The translations under genes and the position numbers were made by a program. DNA of 52,133 bases, taken from a phage. A model generated the notes under the pieces. It ran no database searches. It was not told the origin of the DNA and saw only the letters and a list, made by a program, of their open reading frames with translations. Where the stretch lies: sequence record OZ470597.1; one strand, written 5' to 3'. Each line of letters begins with the position of its first letter. The stretch's first letter is position 1. Positions 21,217 through 38,221 of this stretch are shown piece by piece.

Positions 21217-22278
21217 ATGAATAAGTTTATGGCGTACACCAGCGAAGAAATGAGCAATGAGCTTTATCACGATCCAGAAGCGTGGACGGCTGATTATGTT
21301 AGTGGATCAAGCCTTGCAGAGATTTACAGCACATGCCCGGCGGCGTGGAAGTTCAAGCCGCGTGAAGATAAGAGCAAGGCGCTAGTTTTCGGTACGCAGT
21401 CGCATACCAACTTTGAAAGCAAGGAGCTTTTCGAAAAAACATATCGCCGTGCGCCAGCGCCAGAAGACTTTAAGGATCTGATAACTAGCCAAACGGCGCT
21501 TGCTGCAAAACTGAAATCATTTGGCCTGAAAGGTACAACCGGAAAGACTTATCCAGACCTTATCAAAATGATGGTGGATTGCGGAGAAGACCTTAACGTT
21601 ATGTGGTTGATTGAGATGATCGCAGAAAGCCAGGCCAGGGCTGACGGCGTACAGCTAATCGAATCTAAAGATTACGATGCGTGCGTTGCAATGCGCCAGG
21701 TTCTGGAATCAATACCGGAACATAACGCATGTATGAATAGCAAGACGGCACAACGTGAATTATCGTTGTTCGGTGAAATTAACGGCGTAAAAGTCAAAGT
21801 GCGATGCGATCACGTTGACGTAACAAAGAACGTCACCGCAACGCTGATTGATGGTTACGATGAAAAAGGTCAGCCGATTTGCCGAGATATTATTTATCCA
21901 GAGGCCATTGTGATCACAGACTACAAAACTACAATGAGCGCGAATCCGGCTGAGTTTATGCGCCTGGCTTACAATCACGGCTATTATTTGAAAATGGCGT
22001 TGCAATGTGATTTATTCAGAAAAGCGTATCCAGAAGAAAAGCGACCTATAGTTGTGCGACTGTTAGCGCAAGAGAAGAAAGAGCCTTATTTGCCGTTGGC
22101 TTTCCGCATGAATAGCGAGCAATTGAAGATCGGGCGCATTCAGTACATGAGCGTAATTAACCAGTTTGCCATGTGCCAGCAACATGACGTTTGGCCTTCG
22201 TATTCAAACGGTGAGCCTGAGGTTTGCCTTGATACTCCTGATTGGGTGCGCCGCCAGTTTAAGCAATATCTTATTTAA
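21217..22278 (+). CDS. recombination exonuclease (PD-(D/E)XK family)
   Basis: 353 aa; RCDHVD and ITDYKTT motifs consistent with PD-(D/E)XK nuclease; sigma70-like promoter TTGACT-16-TACAAT upstream; precedes ERF and SSB. Confidence 0.6.
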   Translation: MNKFMAYTSEEMSNELYHDPEAWTADYVSGSSLAEIYSTCPAAWKFKPREDKSKALVFGTQSHTNFESKELFEKTYRRAPAPEDFKDLITSQTALAAKLKSFGLKGTTGKTYPDLIKMMVDCGEDLNVMWLIEMIAESQARADGVQLIESKDYDACVAMRQVLESIPEHNACMNSKTAQRELSLFGEINGVKVKVRCDHVDVTKNVTATLIDGYDEKGQPICRDIIYPEAIVITDYKTTMSANPAEFMRLAYNHGYYLKMALQCDLFRKAYPEEKRPIVVRLLAQEKKEPYLPLAFRMNSEQLKIGRIQYMSVINQFAMCQQHDVWPSYSNGEPEVCLDTPDWVRRQFKQYLI

Positions 22279-22359: not shown

Positions 22360-22638
22360 ATGGAAAACAAACAAGTGTCAGAGGTAGCAGTTCATATCAA
22401 TAATTTTGCAACTGGCATGGCTATGTTGCTTCGTGATTTTGTAGCGCCTCTTGATCCAACGGCAGGCGAAGAAGAAATGGAGTACATCAGAAAAGTAATG
22501 GATGCAGTCGATAACGTCGTACTTATTGCAACAATGAGCGAAGACAACGAGGAAGCAATCAAGGCGGTAAAAGAAAGTTCTGATCGCATGATGGAAAATC
22601 TGATTAAATTACACACCAAAGAAGAAACAAAGCATTAA
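22360..22638 (+). CDS. hypothetical protein
   Basis: 92 aa acidic protein between exonuclease and ERF; RBS AAGGAA. Confidence 0.45.
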   Translation: MENKQVSEVAVHINNFATGMAMLLRDFVAPLDPTAGEEEMEYIRKVMDAVDNVVLIATMSEDNEEAIKAVKESSDRMMENLIKLHTKEETKH

Positions 22639-22683: not shown

Positions 22684-23340
22684 ATGAAACTATCAGAGCA
22701 ATTCGACAAAGTTTTACCAGCACTGCATAAGGCGCGCAGTTTGTTTGTAAAGGTTAAGAAGGATAAGCAAAATACACACTTAAAAAATCGTTACGCAACA
22801 CTTGATGCCGTACTTGATGCAATCACTCCAGCATTGAATGATAATGAGCTAATGTTGATGCAGGATATGATTGAAAGCGAACAACCTAACCGAATCAAGG
22901 TTGAAACTACAGTCCTGCATGTTTCCGGTCAGTGGGTTAAATTCTATGCTGAATTACCAATCGTTAAAAACGATCCTCAAGGTGTCGGATCTGCATTCAC
23001 ATACGCGCGTCGTTATGCAGCCGCCGCAGCATTTGGCTTAAGCCAGGCAGACGATGACGCACAGATTGCCGTTAAATCTGCAAACGACTGGAAGCGTGAC
23101 ATTGAGAAATGCGAAAGCGTAAACGAATTGCAAGAAGTGCTTAAATCAGCATGGAAGGCAAGCGATCCGGCAAGCAAGCAGGTAATTAAAGGGCATTACG
23201 AGAAGCGCAAGGCAGAGCTTGAGATCGGCAAAGCGCGAGGATTTAATCCAGCGCAACCAAAGCAAAATCTTGCATCGCCAGAAGTTGACACAAAAAACGA
23301 CGAGCAAGTAAAATCGCAAAGTATCACTGATTTTGAATGA
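22684..23340 (+). CDS. ERF-family single-strand annealing protein
   Basis: 218 aa; [17 protein letters not shown] and [15 protein letters not shown] motifs characteristic of ERF recombinases; terminator after. Confidence 0.75.
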
Positions 23341-23345
23341 TTGAC

Positions 23346-23368
23346 AGGGGCGATTGCGCCCCTTTTTT
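23346..23368 (+). terminator. intrinsic terminator after ERF gene
   Basis: AGGGGCG...CGCCCCT hairpin followed by TTTTTT. Confidence 0.65.
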
Positions 23369-23383
23369 ACAGGAGAATAAAAC

Positions 23384-23842
23384 ATGCATATTATTACTGG
23401 TGAGATCCGAAAAGAGCCGCGAGTAAAGCAAATGCCTAACGGCAGCACACTTTATGTGGTTGAGCTTTCAGAGCGATACAAAGATAAAGATGGAAACTGG
23501 CAATATACAAACTACAGTTTCTTTTTTAATGCTAAAACAGAAGGTCTTAAGGGTTGGTATGATGAGGCATTCCAGGTTGGCAAGGTTATTTCTGTATCTT
23601 GCGACACGCTGCGCATTGAAACGCGTGAATATAACGGAAAGATGTATTCAAGTTTAATGCCAGGAGGATTTGCAAATCTTATCTTCAGTCAGCGCGGGGA
23701 AAGCCAGCAACAATATCAGCAGCGAACGCAAGGAGGATGGGGCCAACCACAACAACAGAATCAACCGCAACAACAGCAACAGCAACAGCCAAGACAAAAC
23801 AATCAGCCTCCTATGGACTTTGACGACGACATCCCTTTCTGA
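23384..23842 (+). CDS. ssb: single-stranded DNA-binding protein
   Basis: 152 aa; Gln/Gly-rich linker and C-terminal tail PPMDFDDDIPF identical to the E. coli SSB tip. Confidence 0.9.
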   Translation: MHIITGEIRKEPRVKQMPNGSTLYVVELSERYKDKDGNWQYTNYSFFFNAKTEGLKGWYDEAFQVGKVISVSCDTLRIETREYNGKMYSSLMPGGFANLIFSQRGESQQQYQQRTQGGWGQPQQQNQPQQQQQQQPRQNNQPPMDFDDDIPF

Positions 23843-23847
23843 TCAAC

Positions 23848-23871
23848 AAAGGGGCATTACGCCCCTTTTTC
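23848..23871. terminator. bidirectional terminator after ssb
   Basis: AGGGGC...GCCCCT hairpin with A-run before and T-run after. Confidence 0.6.
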
Positions 23872-24114
23872 ACTTTCAGCCATACCAAGCACGGCAATAA
23901 CCTTAACAGCAATTCGCTTTGCAAGTTCAGTTTGATGAGCGTTCAGCTTTCCTGTTGTCATTATTGACAACATTCCGCTCATGCTTCCAAGCCCGTTAAA
24001 ATCTGACATTGCAGATTTCATTATTGATATTGGTGAATGACCATCATCAGCTATTGTGTGTGCTCTCTCTGACAGGTCTTTAACTACCTGATCTATTCCT
24101 TCACTTTTCGTCAT
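23857..24114 (-). CDS. hypothetical protein
   Basis: 85 aa ORF; 3' end overlaps bidirectional terminator hairpin. Confidence 0.35.
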   Translation of the reverse strand: MTKSEGIDQVVKDLSERAHTIADDGHSPISIMKSAMSDFNGLGSMSGMLSIMTTGKLNAHQTELAKRIAVKVIAVLGMAESEKGA

Positions 24115-28075: not shown

Positions 28076-29008
28076 TTAGAGAAGAGATTCAGGTTTGTAA
28101 ACCTTCCTCTCTATCCCTTGCCTGTAATTATCATTAATCGGCATCATAATTTCAAGACCTCTTTCCTCTGCGGCAATGATAGCGTCACGATCTGTGCTCT
28201 TACAGACAACTCGCATTCTTCTGTTGCCTTTATACCTGTAAGCCACAATCTCAATGTTAGTTGCATCAAAACAGGCCCAAACCTCTTGACCAGTTGCAAG
28301 GTGAATATGTTGCGCATCAATCCAGTCAACGCAAAGATAGATTGTCTTATCTGTGCTTCCGGTTCTAACAATCGACCCTCGCGTGTAGTCCTTTGCGATA
28401 AAAGACTGTTTACCCTCCTCATCAATGAAAAGCACATTGCACATTTCATCATCAATATCATCTGAGTGTACCAGGTGACAAGGTAGCGCGTGAATGTATC
28501 TACCATCTTTTACGCCGCAATCATAATGACCATCTTCAGGCGGGTATATTCCTTCATATGTGCTTAACGGCGTGCGATCAAATTTTAGTGTTTTTGACAT
28601 AACGCGCTCGCAGCATTCATGGCTTGCCTGTTTCCCAAACGAATAACCAGAATCACGAGATACTCGCTTATTTGCCTTGATCCTATAGTCCTGCGGAACT
28701 TTTCCAAGAAAACGGCCCAAAATATTGATCACTTCGCTGTAAGGTTCTCCGGTTAGCTTCATGATCCAACCAATTCCGGTGTCATTACCGCACACGTTGC
28801 AGATCGCACCGCCATCGCCTTTTTTATCGCCAAGTTTATCCGTCCATCTGAAGCGATCCTTTCCGCCGCAGTGTGGGCAAGATTGATGCTTGCCGTTAAA
28901 AACTTCATTTGGAAGACCGCAAATACTTTGTAGCGCCTCACGCCATAGTCCCTGCATATATGGGAGAACATCTTCCTTTTGATAAACCATAAAGTTTTCG
29001 TTGTTCAT
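28076..29008 (-). CDS. DNA primase (CHC2 zinc-finger type)
   Basis: ATG 29008 with GAGG RBS; zinc-binding CPHCGGKDRFRW...CNVCGN motif. Confidence 0.7.
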   Translation of the reverse strand: MNNENFMVYQKEDVLPYMQGLWREALQSICGLPNEVFNGKHQSCPHCGGKDRFRWTDKLGDKKGDGGAICNVCGNDTGIGWIMKLTGEPYSEVINILGRFLGKVPQDYRIKANKRVSRDSGYSFGKQASHECCERVMSKTLKFDRTPLSTYEGIYPPEDGHYDCGVKDGRYIHALPCHLVHSDDIDDEMCNVLFIDEEGKQSFIAKDYTRGSIVRTGSTDKTIYLCVDWIDAQHIHLATGQEVWACFDATNIEIVAYRYKGNRRMRVVCKSTDRDAIIAAEERGLEIMMPINDNYRQGIERKVYKPESLL

Positions 29009-29062
29009 ATGCACCTCAAACAAAAAGCCTGACAGATGATAACATCATGCCAGGCATTGTTT

Positions 29063-29549: not shown

Positions 29550-29592
29550 ATAGCATTTTTTGTTAAACGATGATTTAATGATTGTGTATTAT
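29550..29592 (+). promoter_or_regulatory. conserved-element promoter upstream of helicase gene
   Basis: ATAGCATTTTTTGTTAAAC 29550-29568, 18-nt spacer, -10 TATTAT 29587-29592. Confidence 0.5.
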
Positions 29593-29625
29593 ACACGCCA
29601 AATGGCATTACTCAAAGGTTTTAGA

Positions 29626-31665
29626 ATGATTCCAAACATTGAAAAGCAAATATCAGCACTTGGTGAAGCGGTAATTAAATCCATTCAGGAGCGTTTCACT
29701 GTTGGCGAGATTGTGCCTTACCCTTACCAGTGCGTTGCATACGCTGAGATCGCAAAGCGTATGAAAAATTATGAGCATCCATTCTTTGTTAAAGCGTCCG
29801 TATCGGCTGGCAAAACATTGATGTTTGCAATGGTTGCTCACCAGTGCCGGAAAATGGGCTTAAAAATGATGGTTCTTGCTCGCCAAGCTGAGATTGTGGA
29901 TCAAGATTCTGAAGAGATAACAAATCTTGGCGTGCCGAACTCAATCTATTGCGCAGGGCTGAAGACAAAGAGCGCATACTTTCCGATCGTTGTTGGTTCT
30001 GAGGGAACTGTAGTTAATGGACTCTTTAAAGCGCTTAGCGACTATGTTCCTCACGTTATCGGGATTGACGAGTGTCACCAGGTGGATTGGGAAGACCTTG
30101 CCGACGCAATAGAGAAAGACGAGTCATTTTTACAAATGACGACAAAGAAAGGCGAAAAAGTACCAAATCCAGATTATGACGTAGCGAGCGATAACGAATG
30201 CGAAGAGTTCCTGATTGGTGAGGATGGCTTGCCAATGGAGGGAACAGGCCGCACACAATACACTGTCATTATTATGGAAATGATGCGCCGTTGCCGGAAA
30301 ACATATGGTCATGAACTACGCATATTTGGCATGACTGGATCAGAGTTTCGCGGTGTAGTCCCAATACTGGTAGAAGATAAAAAGCAAAAAGGATTCTGGC
30401 GTGAGCAGGTTACTAATATTGACACCAACTACCTGATCAAGTTCGGATCTGTTGTTCCGACTAATTTTGGCGACGTTGGCGATCTCGGGTATGACCTTTC
30501 AGAGTTTGAGGCATCAAGCGAGGATGGCGTTGCAGACTTTGACGCTAAAACGCTTCGCAGGATGGAACAAAAAATTCATGAAGAAGCGACCATGACAAAG
30601 CGCATCATGGCGAAAGTGCACGAGATATGTAAAAACCGTAACGGCGTACTTGTGACATGTGCAGGCGAAAGGCACTGTAAAGAGGCAGCGGCAGCATTGC
30701 CACCTGGAACGACTTACAGGATCATTACTGGTAAGACTGGCGATAACCAGCGCAAGGAGTGGTTGAAGGAGGCATACGAAGGGAAGGTAAAATACATCTT
30801 CCAGGTTCAGGCGCTAACAACTGGCGTTAACGTGCCTTTTTGGGATACGTCGGTTATATTGCGCAAGATTGGATCTCTTACGTTGCTGATTCAGCTTTTA
30901 GGGCGCGGAATGCGACTACTTAAGAAGTGGCATAAGGAGCAAGGATTCCAGAAAGATGATCATCTCGTCATGGATTTTTCAGGAACGATGGACGAGTTAG
31001 GGGAACTTTATTTTGATCCGATACTTGAACAGGCGCAACACAAGAAGCGATTCAGGAACGGTAAAGATCCGAAGCCTTGTCCTATTTGTGGAACTCTTAA
31101 CAGCTATTATGCTCGTCGTTGTATGCACGTAGACGAAAACGACAACAGATGCGAGTGGTTCTTTAAATTCAGGACATGTGATGATCAGATTGACCCGCGC
31201 ACTAAAAAGATTATTCATCGCGGTTGCGGCACGAAGAATGATATTGCGGCCAGGGTATGCAGACATTGCGACATGTCATTAATTGACCCTAACGAGAAGT
31301 TAAGCGGAAAGCACTACACAAAAAACGACTGGTTCAAGGTGCAATCTTTCTCGGTTGACATGACGAAAAACCAGAAAGGGATAATATTTAATTATGAGCT
31401 TTCCGATGGCATAGACACTTTCAGGGCGAGAGAGATATTTTTCCCTGAATCTGAAAGCCAAATTTGCCGCGCAAAATGGCGAAGCGTTGCCCTTAAGCAC
31501 ATACCAGATCGCCGCATCGCTGGTATGGTGGCGAGCTATCGCAATGCGCGTAAAATCATGCAATATGTGAATCACATCATGCCGCCATCGCGCGTGACTC
31601 ACCGCAAGACTAGCAAGGGCGAAGATAATTTGTACAAAAAGGAATTTAATTATGGCAATGACTGA
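29626..31665 (+). CDS. SF2 DEAD/DEAH-box ATP-dependent helicase
   Basis: Walker A SAGKT and DECH box; start set at ATG 29626, downstream of the conserved promoter at 29550-29592. Confidence 0.8.
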   Translation: MIPNIEKQISALGEAVIKSIQERFTVGEIVPYPYQCVAYAEIAKRMKNYEHPFFVKASVSAGKTLMFAMVAHQCRKMGLKMMVLARQAEIVDQDSEEITNLGVPNSIYCAGLKTKSAYFPIVVGSEGTVVNGLFKALSDYVPHVIGIDECHQVDWEDLADAIEKDESFLQMTTKKGEKVPNPDYDVASDNECEEFLIGEDGLPMEGTGRTQYTVIIMEMMRRCRKTYGHELRIFGMTGSEFRGVVPILVEDKKQKGFWREQVTNIDTNYLIKFGSVVPTNFGDVGDLGYDLSEFEASSEDGVADFDAKTLRRMEQKIHEEATMTKRIMAKVHEICKNRNGVLVTCAGERHCKEAAAALPPGTTYRIITGKTGDNQRKEWLKEAYEGKVKYIFQVQALTTGVNVPFWDTSVILRKIGSLTLLIQLLGRGMRLLKKWHKEQGFQKDDHLVMDFSGTMDELGELYFDPILEQAQHKKRFRNGKDPKPCPICGTLNSYYARRCMHVDENDNRCEWFFKFRTCDDQIDPRTKKIIHRGCGTKNDIAARVCRHCDMSLIDPNEKLSGKHYTKNDWFKVQSFSVDMTKNQKGIIFNYELSDGIDTFRAREIFFPESESQICRAKWRSVALKHIPDRRIAGMVASYRNARKIMQYVNHIMPPSRVTHRKTSKGEDNLYKKEFNYGND

Positions 31666-36247: not shown

Positions 36248-36572
36248 CGCTCATTTCTCCGATCCTTAAAACATCCCTTACCCATTCGTTTTGCATACCT
36301 TCCAGGCTGTAAAGTTCAAACGAGAAAGGGCGATTTGCGGATCCTTTCTTACACCAGAACTTTCCACCAACTCCATCAAGATAACCAGCGGTCATCATTC
36401 TTGCGCAAAACTCTTTTGAAACGGCAGTCGCAAACATTCTCGGCGTAAATCCTGCGGCCCTTGCGAGCCGCTCACATTCTCTATGCTGAAATATAAATTT
36501 CGCTATATGTTGACGTGTAAACCATTCGAATGACTCACACCAGCGATACAGATCCAGAAGAAACATAATCAC
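36174..36572 (-). CDS. hypothetical protein
   Basis: 132 aa; start overlaps stop of upstream large gene (ATGA). Confidence 0.45.
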   Translation of the reverse strand: MIMFLLDLYRWCESFEWFTRQHIAKFIFQHRECERLARAAGFTPRMFATAVSKEFCARMMTAGYLDGVGGKFWCKKGSANRPFSFELYSLEGMQNEWVRDVLRIGEMSDEELFASNANRQNIEVLRRKFNLT

Positions 36573-38152
36573 CCCAGCAATGTTGGATTTACAAAAACAA
36601 CGCCATTAATCACACAAATATAATTTCTTTCTTCAAGCATCGGCAGCAGTTGCGTTTCCATACGCTTCATTACGCCAGCCTGACCAACAAAAGGCTTAAC
36701 TTTTCGTGCAGCCTCATATATGGCGCGCACATTCAAGATCCCCTTGTTAGCCTTACCGTGTCGAGTGATAATCTCGATTAGTTTACCCATTTCAGCATCA
36801 TCACCAGCATAGCCAGAAGCGTTGGCGGCGCTAATGTATGTTTTGCTCAACTCGCTAAACATCAGCAGTGCTTCTTGAACGGTTTCAACTTCAATCTCTT
36901 TCGACTTCTGAGGGTATCCACCAGGATTAAACCAGTTGCGGATAGTGTGCAAAACTGAAGCAATCCTGATCACCTGCTTATCCATTTTGCCAAGCGCGCC
37001 GCGCAGCATTGTATGCGAATACTTTCCGCCATCAGCAAGGTGCGGTTCCATCTCCTGACGAGCCATGTTAAGGACTCGCATTGCTGATTTGCTGATCTTA
37101 AGCTGTATGTTTGATTCACTCATGATGTTATGGATCAGCTTAAAATATTGGCTTTTCAGTTCTCCATCAACAGGCTCATAAGTAGAATCACCGTTATCAT
37201 CAACAAATTTTCGACGACCTAAAAATGATTCTTCACGCACAAGCAAATAACGCTCACTCACACCGATACCGCGCGATCCTGCATCCATGATGGCATTAAT
37301 TGTTTCATCCTGGGCAATTACTGCCATACAGCCAAGAGCTTTAAAACTCATGTTATTGTCTGCGTTTGCGCGAGCTATAGAAACATGACCGTGATCCCAT
37401 GCTTTCAGCACAAGTTCGCTGTTGGTTTTACGTTCGCTATTGGCATATGTCAGACCTAAAAGGCTGTTAATACTCGTTGCCTCGTCTGAAATCACAGCAA
37501 AGTTACCCTGGCGATTGTTGATTCTTGCAAGTCCTTCCGGCGTGGTGTCTGACACAGGGAAAACGATGTCACACATCTTTTCCAGTTTTTCTTCCAGATC
37601 TTCTTTCTCCTGGTATAGCGATTCCATATCAGCACCAGATCGCTCGCTCTTCATCTCTTTTGCAAGACCTGCCAACTTTGCCTGAATCTTTTTCCGCTCC
37701 TTCTTTCGCTGATCATTAATTCTTTCCACTTCAGCAACCATAGGAGCAAGAGCCAGGCTGTTAACGGCAGATTTACCAGTTGAAGGAGGCTGGCTTGTGA
37801 CAACGTAAAGAGCGGTTGGCTGATCCGTTCCGTGATACTCAACCGTGAAGCGTCCAAGCATTGCAGCAGACACGCAGCCGATAAAATGCATATAGGCCGA
37901 TGATTCAGGGAATTGAACAGAGCGAGCAATGTTTCGCGCCAACTTACCAACAACATCAACATCATTGCCAAGAGAAATTACAGGGTAGCGATCGTTTCCG
38001 TTATTAACATCATTAACCTCACCCCAAAAGCTGGACGATTGACGGTATCCGTTAGCCTGAATGGACACGCGCACCGGAGACAATCCTTGTGCATCAGCTA
38101 ATTCGATAATTTGTTTTGGTGTTAGTTTATTGGTTTCAAACGAAAAATTCAT
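36569..38152 (-). CDS. large hypothetical protein (possible DUF3987-like replication-associated protein)
   Basis: 527 aa from ATG 38152 (AAAGGAG RBS; ORF extends to 38212); conserved promoter element immediately upstream; P-loop-like PPSTGKS is non-canonical. Confidence 0.5.
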   Translation of the reverse strand: MNFSFETNKLTPKQIIELADAQGLSPVRVSIQANGYRQSSSFWGEVNDVNNGNDRYPVISLGNDVDVVGKLARNIARSVQFPESSAYMHFIGCVSAAMLGRFTVEYHGTDQPTALYVVTSQPPSTGKSAVNSLALAPMVAEVERINDQRKKERKKIQAKLAGLAKEMKSERSGADMESLYQEKEDLEEKLEKMCDIVFPVSDTTPEGLARINNRQGNFAVISDEATSINSLLGLTYANSERKTNSELVLKAWDHGHVSIARANADNNMSFKALGCMAVIAQDETINAIMDAGSRGIGVSERYLLVREESFLGRRKFVDDNGDSTYEPVDGELKSQYFKLIHNIMSESNIQLKISKSAMRVLNMARQEMEPHLADGGKYSHTMLRGALGKMDKQVIRIASVLHTIRNWFNPGGYPQKSKEIEVETVQEALLMFSELSKTYISAANASGYAGDDAEMGKLIEIITRHGKANKGILNVRAIYEAARKVKPFVGQAGVMKRMETQLLPMLEERNYICVINGVVFVNPTLLG

Positions 38153-38177
38153 TGATGATAACTCCTTTTGATGCGGC

Positions 38178-38221
38178 AATAATACCGCACCAATGCTACC
38201 CGCATTTAACAAAAAATGCTA
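38178..38221 (-). promoter_or_regulatory. conserved-element promoter for 36569..38152 gene
   Basis: minus-strand ATAGCATTTTTTGTTAAAT (38204-38221) and -10 TATTAT (38178-38183). Confidence 0.5.

Follow-up and report, generated by a model that had tools for sequence, protein, structure and literature searches.

A T1-like phage's single-stranded DNA-binding protein joins a divergent OB-fold domain to the C-terminal tip of Escherichia coli SSB

What does a C-terminal tip identical to that of host SSB do on a phage SSB whose OB-fold domain is divergent? Host-type SSB tails on the SSBs of phages and plasmids are textbook knowledge, and the idea that such a tail docks onto host proteins is reasonable and already standard. 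The locus considered here lies in the window, by which is meant the whole stretch of DNA that was analysed (52,133 nucleotides), and the window is the complete genome of a T1-like phage (Drexlerviridae, Tempevirinae, Hanrivervirus) from a group of virulent siphoviruses. It is a circularly permuted pSf-1-like genome, ~96% identical to Shigella phage pSf-1, with 89% collinear and covered at 92-96.5% identity and every gap at most 1.4 kb. The ssb region shares 93-97% DNA identity with pSf-1 and with a number of Escherichia phages such as vojen, grams, egaa and KarlJaspers; at the protein level, database entries match the OB domain at 97-100%. In pSf-1, vojen, grams, egaa and other relatives the gene already bears the annotation "single strand DNA binding protein". 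The gene is already annotated as an SSB in dozens of T1-like phages, and the finding as stated matters little. It does offer a clean and well-sampled example of a short linear motif that is kept by purifying selection and joined to an OB core that evolves fast. In addition, the pair of Erf and its cognate SSB is a lead for recombineering that should suit enterobacterial hosts.

The reading frame reported in the earlier note is real. It is intact, with an ATG start preceded by a Shine-Dalgarno sequence, a TGA stop read directly in the sequence, and 152 codons between (Table 1). It comes last in a collinear module of the SPP1 type, made up of a 5'-3' exonuclease, a single-strand annealing protein (SSAP) and an SSB. 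The Erf gene lies directly upstream of ssb in the same orientation, with a spacer of 43 nt, in 77 of 80 related loci; 73 of the 80 have the nuclease, whose pSf-1 counterpart is annotated "exonuclease VIII". In Drexlerviridae phage AAS23, the SSB, Erf and ExoVIII are likewise encoded by adjacent genes, gp25-gp27 (PMC8004638). A small reading frame between the exonuclease and erf matches a family named "tail length tape measure protein", a name that RefSeq has copied, and was detected in 31 of the 80 related loci. This name is doubtful because of the small size of the product and its place in a recombination module. Two Vibrio-phage members of the OB family (L088 and L089), whose tips read ..DFDDSQIPF and ..GMADEDIPF, have no adjacent Erf, and their ssb genes sit near lysis and dUTPase genes or near a repair exonuclease.

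Table 1. Positions of the features discussed; those with an L prefix lie in loci other than the window
Feature	Position	Strand	Remarks
RecE/exonuclease VIII-like PDDEXK nuclease	21217..22278	+	Pfam DUF3799, 61 bits; first gene of exo-erf-ssb module
92-aa ORF	22360-22638		phrog_11265
Erf-family single-strand annealing protein	22684..23340	+	Pfam ERF 88.3 bits, E=6.5e-25; PHROG 155, E=3e-47
Terminator-like hairpin AGGGGCGATTGCGCCCCT + TTTTT	23346..23363	+	consensus scan and sequence; inside erf-ssb spacer
Shine-Dalgarno AGGAG of ssb	23371-23375
ssb, T1-like (Hanrivervirus) phage	23384..23842	+	152 aa plus TGA (23840-23842); ORF and translation, PHROG 44, annotated relatives
OB-fold domain, divergent SSB/PriB-type	23384..23698	+	aa 1-105
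Intrinsically disordered Gln/Pro-rich linker	23699..23806	+	aa 106-141
QGGWGQPQQ block in linker	23729..23755	+	aa 116-124; 9/9 with E. coli SSB linker block
Gln run	23756-23800		CAA/CAG repeats
Tip PPMDFDDDIPF, SSB-Ct docking motif	23807..23839	+	aa 142-152; 11/11 with E. coli SSB
GC-rich hairpin then T run, terminator-like	23848..23868		consensus scan and sequence; directly past ssb stop
Convergent gene downstream of ssb	23857-24114	-
Primase	28076-29023
SF2 helicase	29560-31665
DUF3987 helicase-like protein	36569-38212
Reference ssb, E. coli K-12 NC_000913.3	L002:3126-3662
Vibrio-phage ssb genes of the OB family	L088:2495-2983; L089:2495-2983
Post-tip extension with insertion at the end of ssb	L006:3451-3910
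Post-tip extension	L078:3442-3486; L060:3493-3537; L084:1552-1596; L085:1543-1587; L086:1543-1587; L087:2534-2578
Free-standing endonuclease genes (phrog_2340 / phrog_1035, "endonuclease VII")	L006:3470-3910; L086:1559-2182; L087:2568-3065; L084:1655-2062

The OB-fold part of the protein had been called divergent, and this description holds. BLASTP aligns the phage SSB with E. coli SSB at 25% identity overall, with the tail contributing much of the score. The Pfam SSB model (PF00436) gives 16.5 bits, below its cut-off of 26, and covers residues 3-47 only, which leaves the protein outside Pfam SSB membership by gathering score. Foldseek matches the OB model to solved SSBs at 15-22% identity. 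AlphaFold2, run with a 41-sequence family alignment, predicts a confident OB barrel (pLDDT ~95) for the domain, and this predicted fold is of the SSB/PriB type, resembling solved SSB and PriB structures. The profile of phage SSBs (PHROG 44) matches at E=1.3e-21 over residues 1-152, the whole protein. A search with the OB domain as a single sequence against 1.84 billion representative proteins gave 45 matches, among them no canonical bacterial SSB; at the level of sequence this confirms the divergence of the domain and adds no functional information. HMM alignments place Y32 and Y44 of the phage SSB opposite W40 and W54 of E. coli SSB, which is suggestive only. Taken with the predicted model, the phage protein counts as a distant OB protein of the SSB type, with the full SSB architecture despite a score below the Pfam threshold.

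The linker and tip alone also match the longer phage families phrog_2544, phrog_4477 and phrog_3284, which have SSB-like tails and no assigned function, as well as engineered Dictyostelium myosin constructs (PDB 2xel, 2jhr and others) that end in ..NEPPMDFDDDIPF. Because of such tail-only matches, whole-protein E-values against SSBs are inflated by the tail.

The phage SSB does not have the gp2.5-like fold of T7 gp2.5-type phage SSBs, which are the triggers of retron-Eco8 and DARNA. A link to defence triggering (retron Eco8, DARNA, Hachiman) is not claimed; the literature on it deals with SSBs of the gp2.5, T4 and T5 types from phages with their own polymerases and not with the present family.

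The tail peptide of the phage SSB is QNNQPPMDFDDDIPF. Its last 11 residues had been described as exactly those of E. coli SSB, and they do equal the C-terminus of E. coli K-12 SSB at every position; at residue -12 the phage has Q where E. coli has E. The same tip is present in PDB entries 1eqq and 4mz9 (E. coli SSB) and in the Klebsiella entry 7f2n. By simple arithmetic on the sequences, chance cannot account for a full 11-residue match that is anchored at the C-terminus. The layout is that of a disordered linker followed by an acidic D-D-D-I-P-F tip at a free C-terminus, and AlphaFold2 predicts the tip to be slightly more ordered than the linker. The phage tip has the acidic run and the IPF-COOH end on which the SSB-Ct hub depends.

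How strongly the tip is held was examined in 64 distinct nucleotide versions, obtained from 80 related IMG/VR loci together with the window and E. coli. At the last seven positions, F is found in 64 of 64, D in 59, D in 61, D in 63, I in 63, P in 64 and F in 64, while two to four codons are in use at each. Because the residues are near-invariant while their codons vary freely, FDDDIPF is, on the sequence record, under strong purifying selection. The selected residues are those that SSB-Ct pockets use, namely the acidic run, Ile, Pro and the terminal Phe with its carboxylate; PMC3561973 and PMC3632105 give summaries of these requirements.

Variation is seen among relatives at positions -11 to -8 (PPMD, PPID, PGMD, QQNF and others), and 58 of 120 close homologues have the exact 11-mer. 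Variant tips in E. coli-infecting relatives read ..QQNFEDDIPF and ..QQQFDSDIPF, and those in Klebsiella-type relatives read ..GMDFDDDIPF. Tips of the ..IPF type still close the proteins of more distant members of the family, such as DFDDEIPF, WDDDIPF and FEDDIPF, and in the Vibrio phage members DFDDSQIPF and ADEDIPF. To judge from these sequences, the exact 11-mer is not required. The label of an exact E. coli SSB tip is thus right as to identity but overstates specificity, since the tip is common to unrelated phage SSBs. It ends the SSBs of P1, P7 and Vibrio phages, and a host-tracking comparison with no Vibrio host SSB on its host side found it shared among phages of Enterobacterales and a large number of SSBs from Vibrio phages. 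The last seven residues are common to Pseudomonas aeruginosa SSB too (10.1101/2020.04.14.041095).

The phage has a primase, helicases and Dam of its own. No DNA polymerase is encoded in the window, where each of the six ORFs of at least 500 aa is accounted for as a terminase, a tape measure or tail protein or a helicase, and none is found among the 94 annotated genes of pSf-1. The gaps in the window unmatched to pSf-1 are too small for a DNA polymerase gene. Since the phage lacks a DNA polymerase, host Pol III must run on DNA coated with phage SSB. For AAS23, its authors likewise infer the use of host polymerase, with helicases and SSB as recruiters (PMC8004638).

It is therefore probable that the protein is the phage's own SSB, with a tip that serves host partners and the phage partner Erf together. 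In this model, in which the binding of ssDNA, the oligomeric state and all contacts between proteins are inferred, the divergent OB domain would coat the phage ssDNA that arises at replication forks and from resection by the RecE-like exonuclease. The Gln/Pro-rich disordered linker would present the host-type SSB-Ct tip, and the tip would dock into pockets normally taken by host SSB. Of these, the pocket of Pol III chi would matter most, since it is host Pol III that has to copy phage templates; PriA, RecQ, ExoI and others are further plausible partners. The tip probably also brings the phage Erf annealase onto SSB-coated DNA. The proposal that the phage SSB taps the host SSB interactome is plausible and has partial support of an indirect kind, in that the sequence fits a docking tail, but Erf may be an equal or additional target. 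Because host SSB is also present, the phage SSB may be partly redundant. Such a tail is real but ordinary, a familiar route for polymerase-less phages into host replication and repair proteins.

Phage annealases are known to read SSB tails. The Sak4 annealase of HK620 depends on the six C-terminal residues of its partner SSB (PMC5928155), and the specificity of Red-beta and RecT maps to the last 7 SSB residues (bioRxiv 10.1101/2020.04.14.041095). These precedents, together with the close and co-oriented position of ssb downstream of erf, favour a narrower reading, in which the main role of the tip is to bring Erf, and perhaps also the RecE-like exonuclease or the primase/helicase, onto SSB-coated DNA, and host binding is incidental. 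Identity with the host would then arise only because phage proteins must also work on DNA coated with host SSB. However, the Vibrio-phage members, and also L060, have retained a tip of the ..IPF type in loci with no Erf beside ssb, and in a phage without a polymerase host Pol III must still work on the phage SSB, which leaves this narrower reading unlikely. The phage-partner and host-partner roles of the tip are not mutually exclusive, and the model with both kinds of partner is preferred.

The tip could also act against the host, with abundant phage SSB titrating the partners of host SSB or poisoning host forks. The SSB of Bacillus phage SPP1, G36P, inhibits reconstituted B. subtilis replication despite saturating SsbA, for which its authors propose a takeover (PMC3561973), and an identical tip on a divergent OB core would suit a decoy. 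However, the sequence fits competition and productive recruitment alike, and the phage itself needs the host enzymes, so that such a decoy is quite improbable. Very improbable is a tail that works within the molecule, the acidic tip folding onto the OB domain and tuning its ssDNA affinity and cooperativity, with partner recruitment minor. A passage in PMC5928155 cites the self-interaction of the acidic tail with the core of E. coli SSB, and tip sites have been predicted on that core (PMC12143593), but this role would select for acidity and not for a near-invariant F-x-x-D-I-P-F with a terminal Phe.

The weakest alternative, a recent chimera whose 3' end was captured by recombination from a host, plasmid or prophage ssb, would explain an OB domain ~20% identical beside a tip and linker block that are 100% identical, but is scarcely credible and was rejected, given synonymous sites that are saturated between phage and E. 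coli in both blocks, the lack of similar DNA in any E. coli replicon (megablast, blastn), the lack of a plasmid-borne SSB with this tail when the full-length protein was compared with 72,556 plasmids, and the same architecture throughout a deep family that reaches Vibrio phages. Synonymous third-position differences from E. coli ssb occur at 6 of the 10 degenerate codons among the 11 tip codons compared, and 8 of 9 codons of the linker block are synonymously different; these differences, with the lack of an E. coli DNA match, mark the tip as no recent capture. Megablast with ssb as the query found zero matches in 5,426 complete E. coli genomes, and sensitive blastn gave only two marginal matches of 42-72 nt, in annotated SSB genes. 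The one plasmid record found by tblastn, from Paraclostridium, matched via the OB domain. An ancient capture of the tail would be compatible with the sequences.

Comparison with known systems places the phage SSB among tailed SSBs of several kinds. With E. coli SSB it shares the OB fold, the disordered linker, the acidic tip, the identical last 11 residues and 9-residue linker block, and a linker with two aromatic and two Arg residues (R116, W136, F148 and R155 in E. coli; PMC12143593). Unlike in E. coli SSB, the OB domain is only ~15-25% identical to it and scores below the Pfam cut-off, the protein has 152 residues instead of 178, and the linker is dominated by Gln where that of E. coli is Gly-rich.

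The closest parallel in genomic setting is SPP1, in which G36P ends an operon of G34.1P exonuclease, G35P recombinase and G36P, the phage uses host polymerases, the SSB has a host-like C-terminal tail, and a tail is required in the replication reaction (PMC3561973). G36P is, however, 48% identical to host SSB, and the present OB domain is far more divergent; the SPP1 recombinase is G35P instead of Erf, and its host is Gram-positive. HK620 also has a "distant homolog of SSB" beside a phage annealase, and the last six residues of that SSB are needed for stimulating annealing and recombineering (PMC5928155). Unlike the present tip, that of HK620 SSB is a non-host NDYPPF, and its annealase is the RecA-like Sak4, not Erf. 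For phage modules of this kind, dependence of the annealase or the replisome on the SSB tail is known from SPP1 and HK620 only.

Among the Drexlerviridae, the SSBs of pSf-1 (gp88), vojen, egaa, herni and KarlJaspers are the same gene at 93-100% identity, and gp25 of Pantoea phage AAS23 belongs to the same family and module (PMC8004638). The reports on the SSBs of these six phages contain no analysis of the tail. A ..PPMDFDDDIPF-like tip is shared with the SSBs of P1, P7, ES18, Skarpretter and many Vibrio and Yersinia phages. P1 Ssb has a canonical SSB OB domain, unlike the OB family described here, and Lehnherr et al. are said to have found in 1999 that it can replace E. coli SSB.

The only unusual elements here are side observations, namely a block in the linker and a peptide that follows the tip in relatives. 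The linker is predicted to be disordered (AlphaFold2 pLDDT <50 at aa 107-135 and 137-141). Gln makes up 20 of its 36 residues, and Y110, R113, W119 and R137 are embedded among them. Linker length differs among relatives via indels in CAA/CAG runs: near-identical relatives have proteins of 142-153 aa, and that of pSf-1 is 2 residues shorter. This variation in the length of the Gln run is consistent with slippage.

The QGGWGQPQQ block of the linker is a second host-identical block, absent from the earlier note, and its E. coli counterpart GGWGQPQQ begins at residue 134 with Met counted. GWGxP occurs, with synonymous variation, in 74 of 214 distinct family proteins, including one from a Vibrio phage with ~40% OB identity. 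The Trp of the block is equivalent to W136 of E. coli, which belongs to a set of aromatic and Arg residues in the linker at which changes alter SSB condensation (PMC12143593). A literature search for the string GWGQPQQ returned only prion octarepeats and one preprint listing the SSB linker, and no description of the block as a motif.

The second side observation concerns relatives only; the ssb gene of the window itself has no such feature. In L006 and L008, whose ssb is ~95% identical, an insertion of ~454 bp lies exactly at the last ssb codon and removes the stop, and the SSB reads ..DFDDDIPF-ASVGLQYGKHRIYAL. Within the insertion is a gene for a 146-aa endonuclease (phrog_2340, E=3e-37), and the ATG of this gene falls within the extension. 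The consensus of the extension, 14-15 residues long and followed by a stop, is A-P/S-I/V-G-L-Q/P-Y-x-x-H/N/S-x-I/L-Y/H-x-L/I/F. Within the family it is also carried by the distant members L078, L060 and P0133. Outside the family it is found on the canonical Pfam SSB of a Proteus phage (V3, which at 71 bits is above the Pfam cut-off, unlike the present SSB), on phrog_4477 proteins of Vequintavirus and Phapecoctavirus, and at the end of the DnaB-type primase/helicase of Cronobacter phage GAP31. At least 80% of a tail-plus-extension query is covered in 153 phage records. The peptide itself appears to be selected, because its codons are synonymously different between examples. AlphaFold2 predicts it to be disordered (pLDDT <50) in the extension-bearing relative P0020, and a literature search for extension strings found nothing relevant.

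Related free-standing endonuclease genes lie at, or just past, the ends of genes that finish in an SSB-like tip, and in L006, L086 and L087 the endonuclease start is inside the post-tip extension. This arrangement suggests homing of endonucleases into the conserved tip-coding DNA. The extension was found without the phrog_2340 endonuclease at 3 of 7 loci examined. In GAP31 the endonuclease gene is mis-annotated "baseplate wedge protein gp25".

An extension beyond the terminal Phe may mask the tip and block docking into the pockets; the analogy is with E. coli SSB that has GFP fused to its C-terminus, which loses ExoI binding (PMC7293020). By the same analogy, the extension is mild evidence that a free tip may be dispensable in some lineages.

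These two observations invite a broader proposal, that the phage copies the whole C-terminal logic of host SSB beyond the tip, and that in relatives the tip-coding DNA is a landing site for endonuclease cassettes. The first part is drawn from the shared Trp-containing GWGQPQQ and from equal numbers of aromatic and Arg "stickers" in the two linkers. We regard the proposal as distinctly unlikely. If it were true, the phage SSB might enter assemblies or condensates together with host SSB and use the pool of partners stored there, and the cassette peptide (A-P/S-I/V-G-L-Q-Y...) after the terminal Phe, in SSBs as well as in other replication proteins, would possibly mask or re-target the tip. If the observations hold, a Trp block in otherwise fast-evolving linkers bears on what SSB linkers do, and a peptide past the supposedly obligatory Phe in unrelated replication proteins questions the need for a free tip.

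Two minor observations concern the distribution and the setting of the gene. In each search, 12-19 records titled "Campylobacter phage" (host C. jejuni) carry a T1-type SSB, as does a 49.6-kb Paraclostridium bifermentans "plasmid", CP124687.1. Campylobacter and Paraclostridium are odd hosts for such an SSB, and these records may reflect mis-assignment or contamination. In the window, ssb is flanked on both sides by a GC-rich hairpin with a T run. The upstream hairpin precedes the ssb ribosome-binding site in the spacer and may serve transcription attenuation or RNA stabilisation. The downstream hairpin sits between convergent genes, is shared with the gene on the opposite strand, and is kept in relatives L004, L006 and L008.
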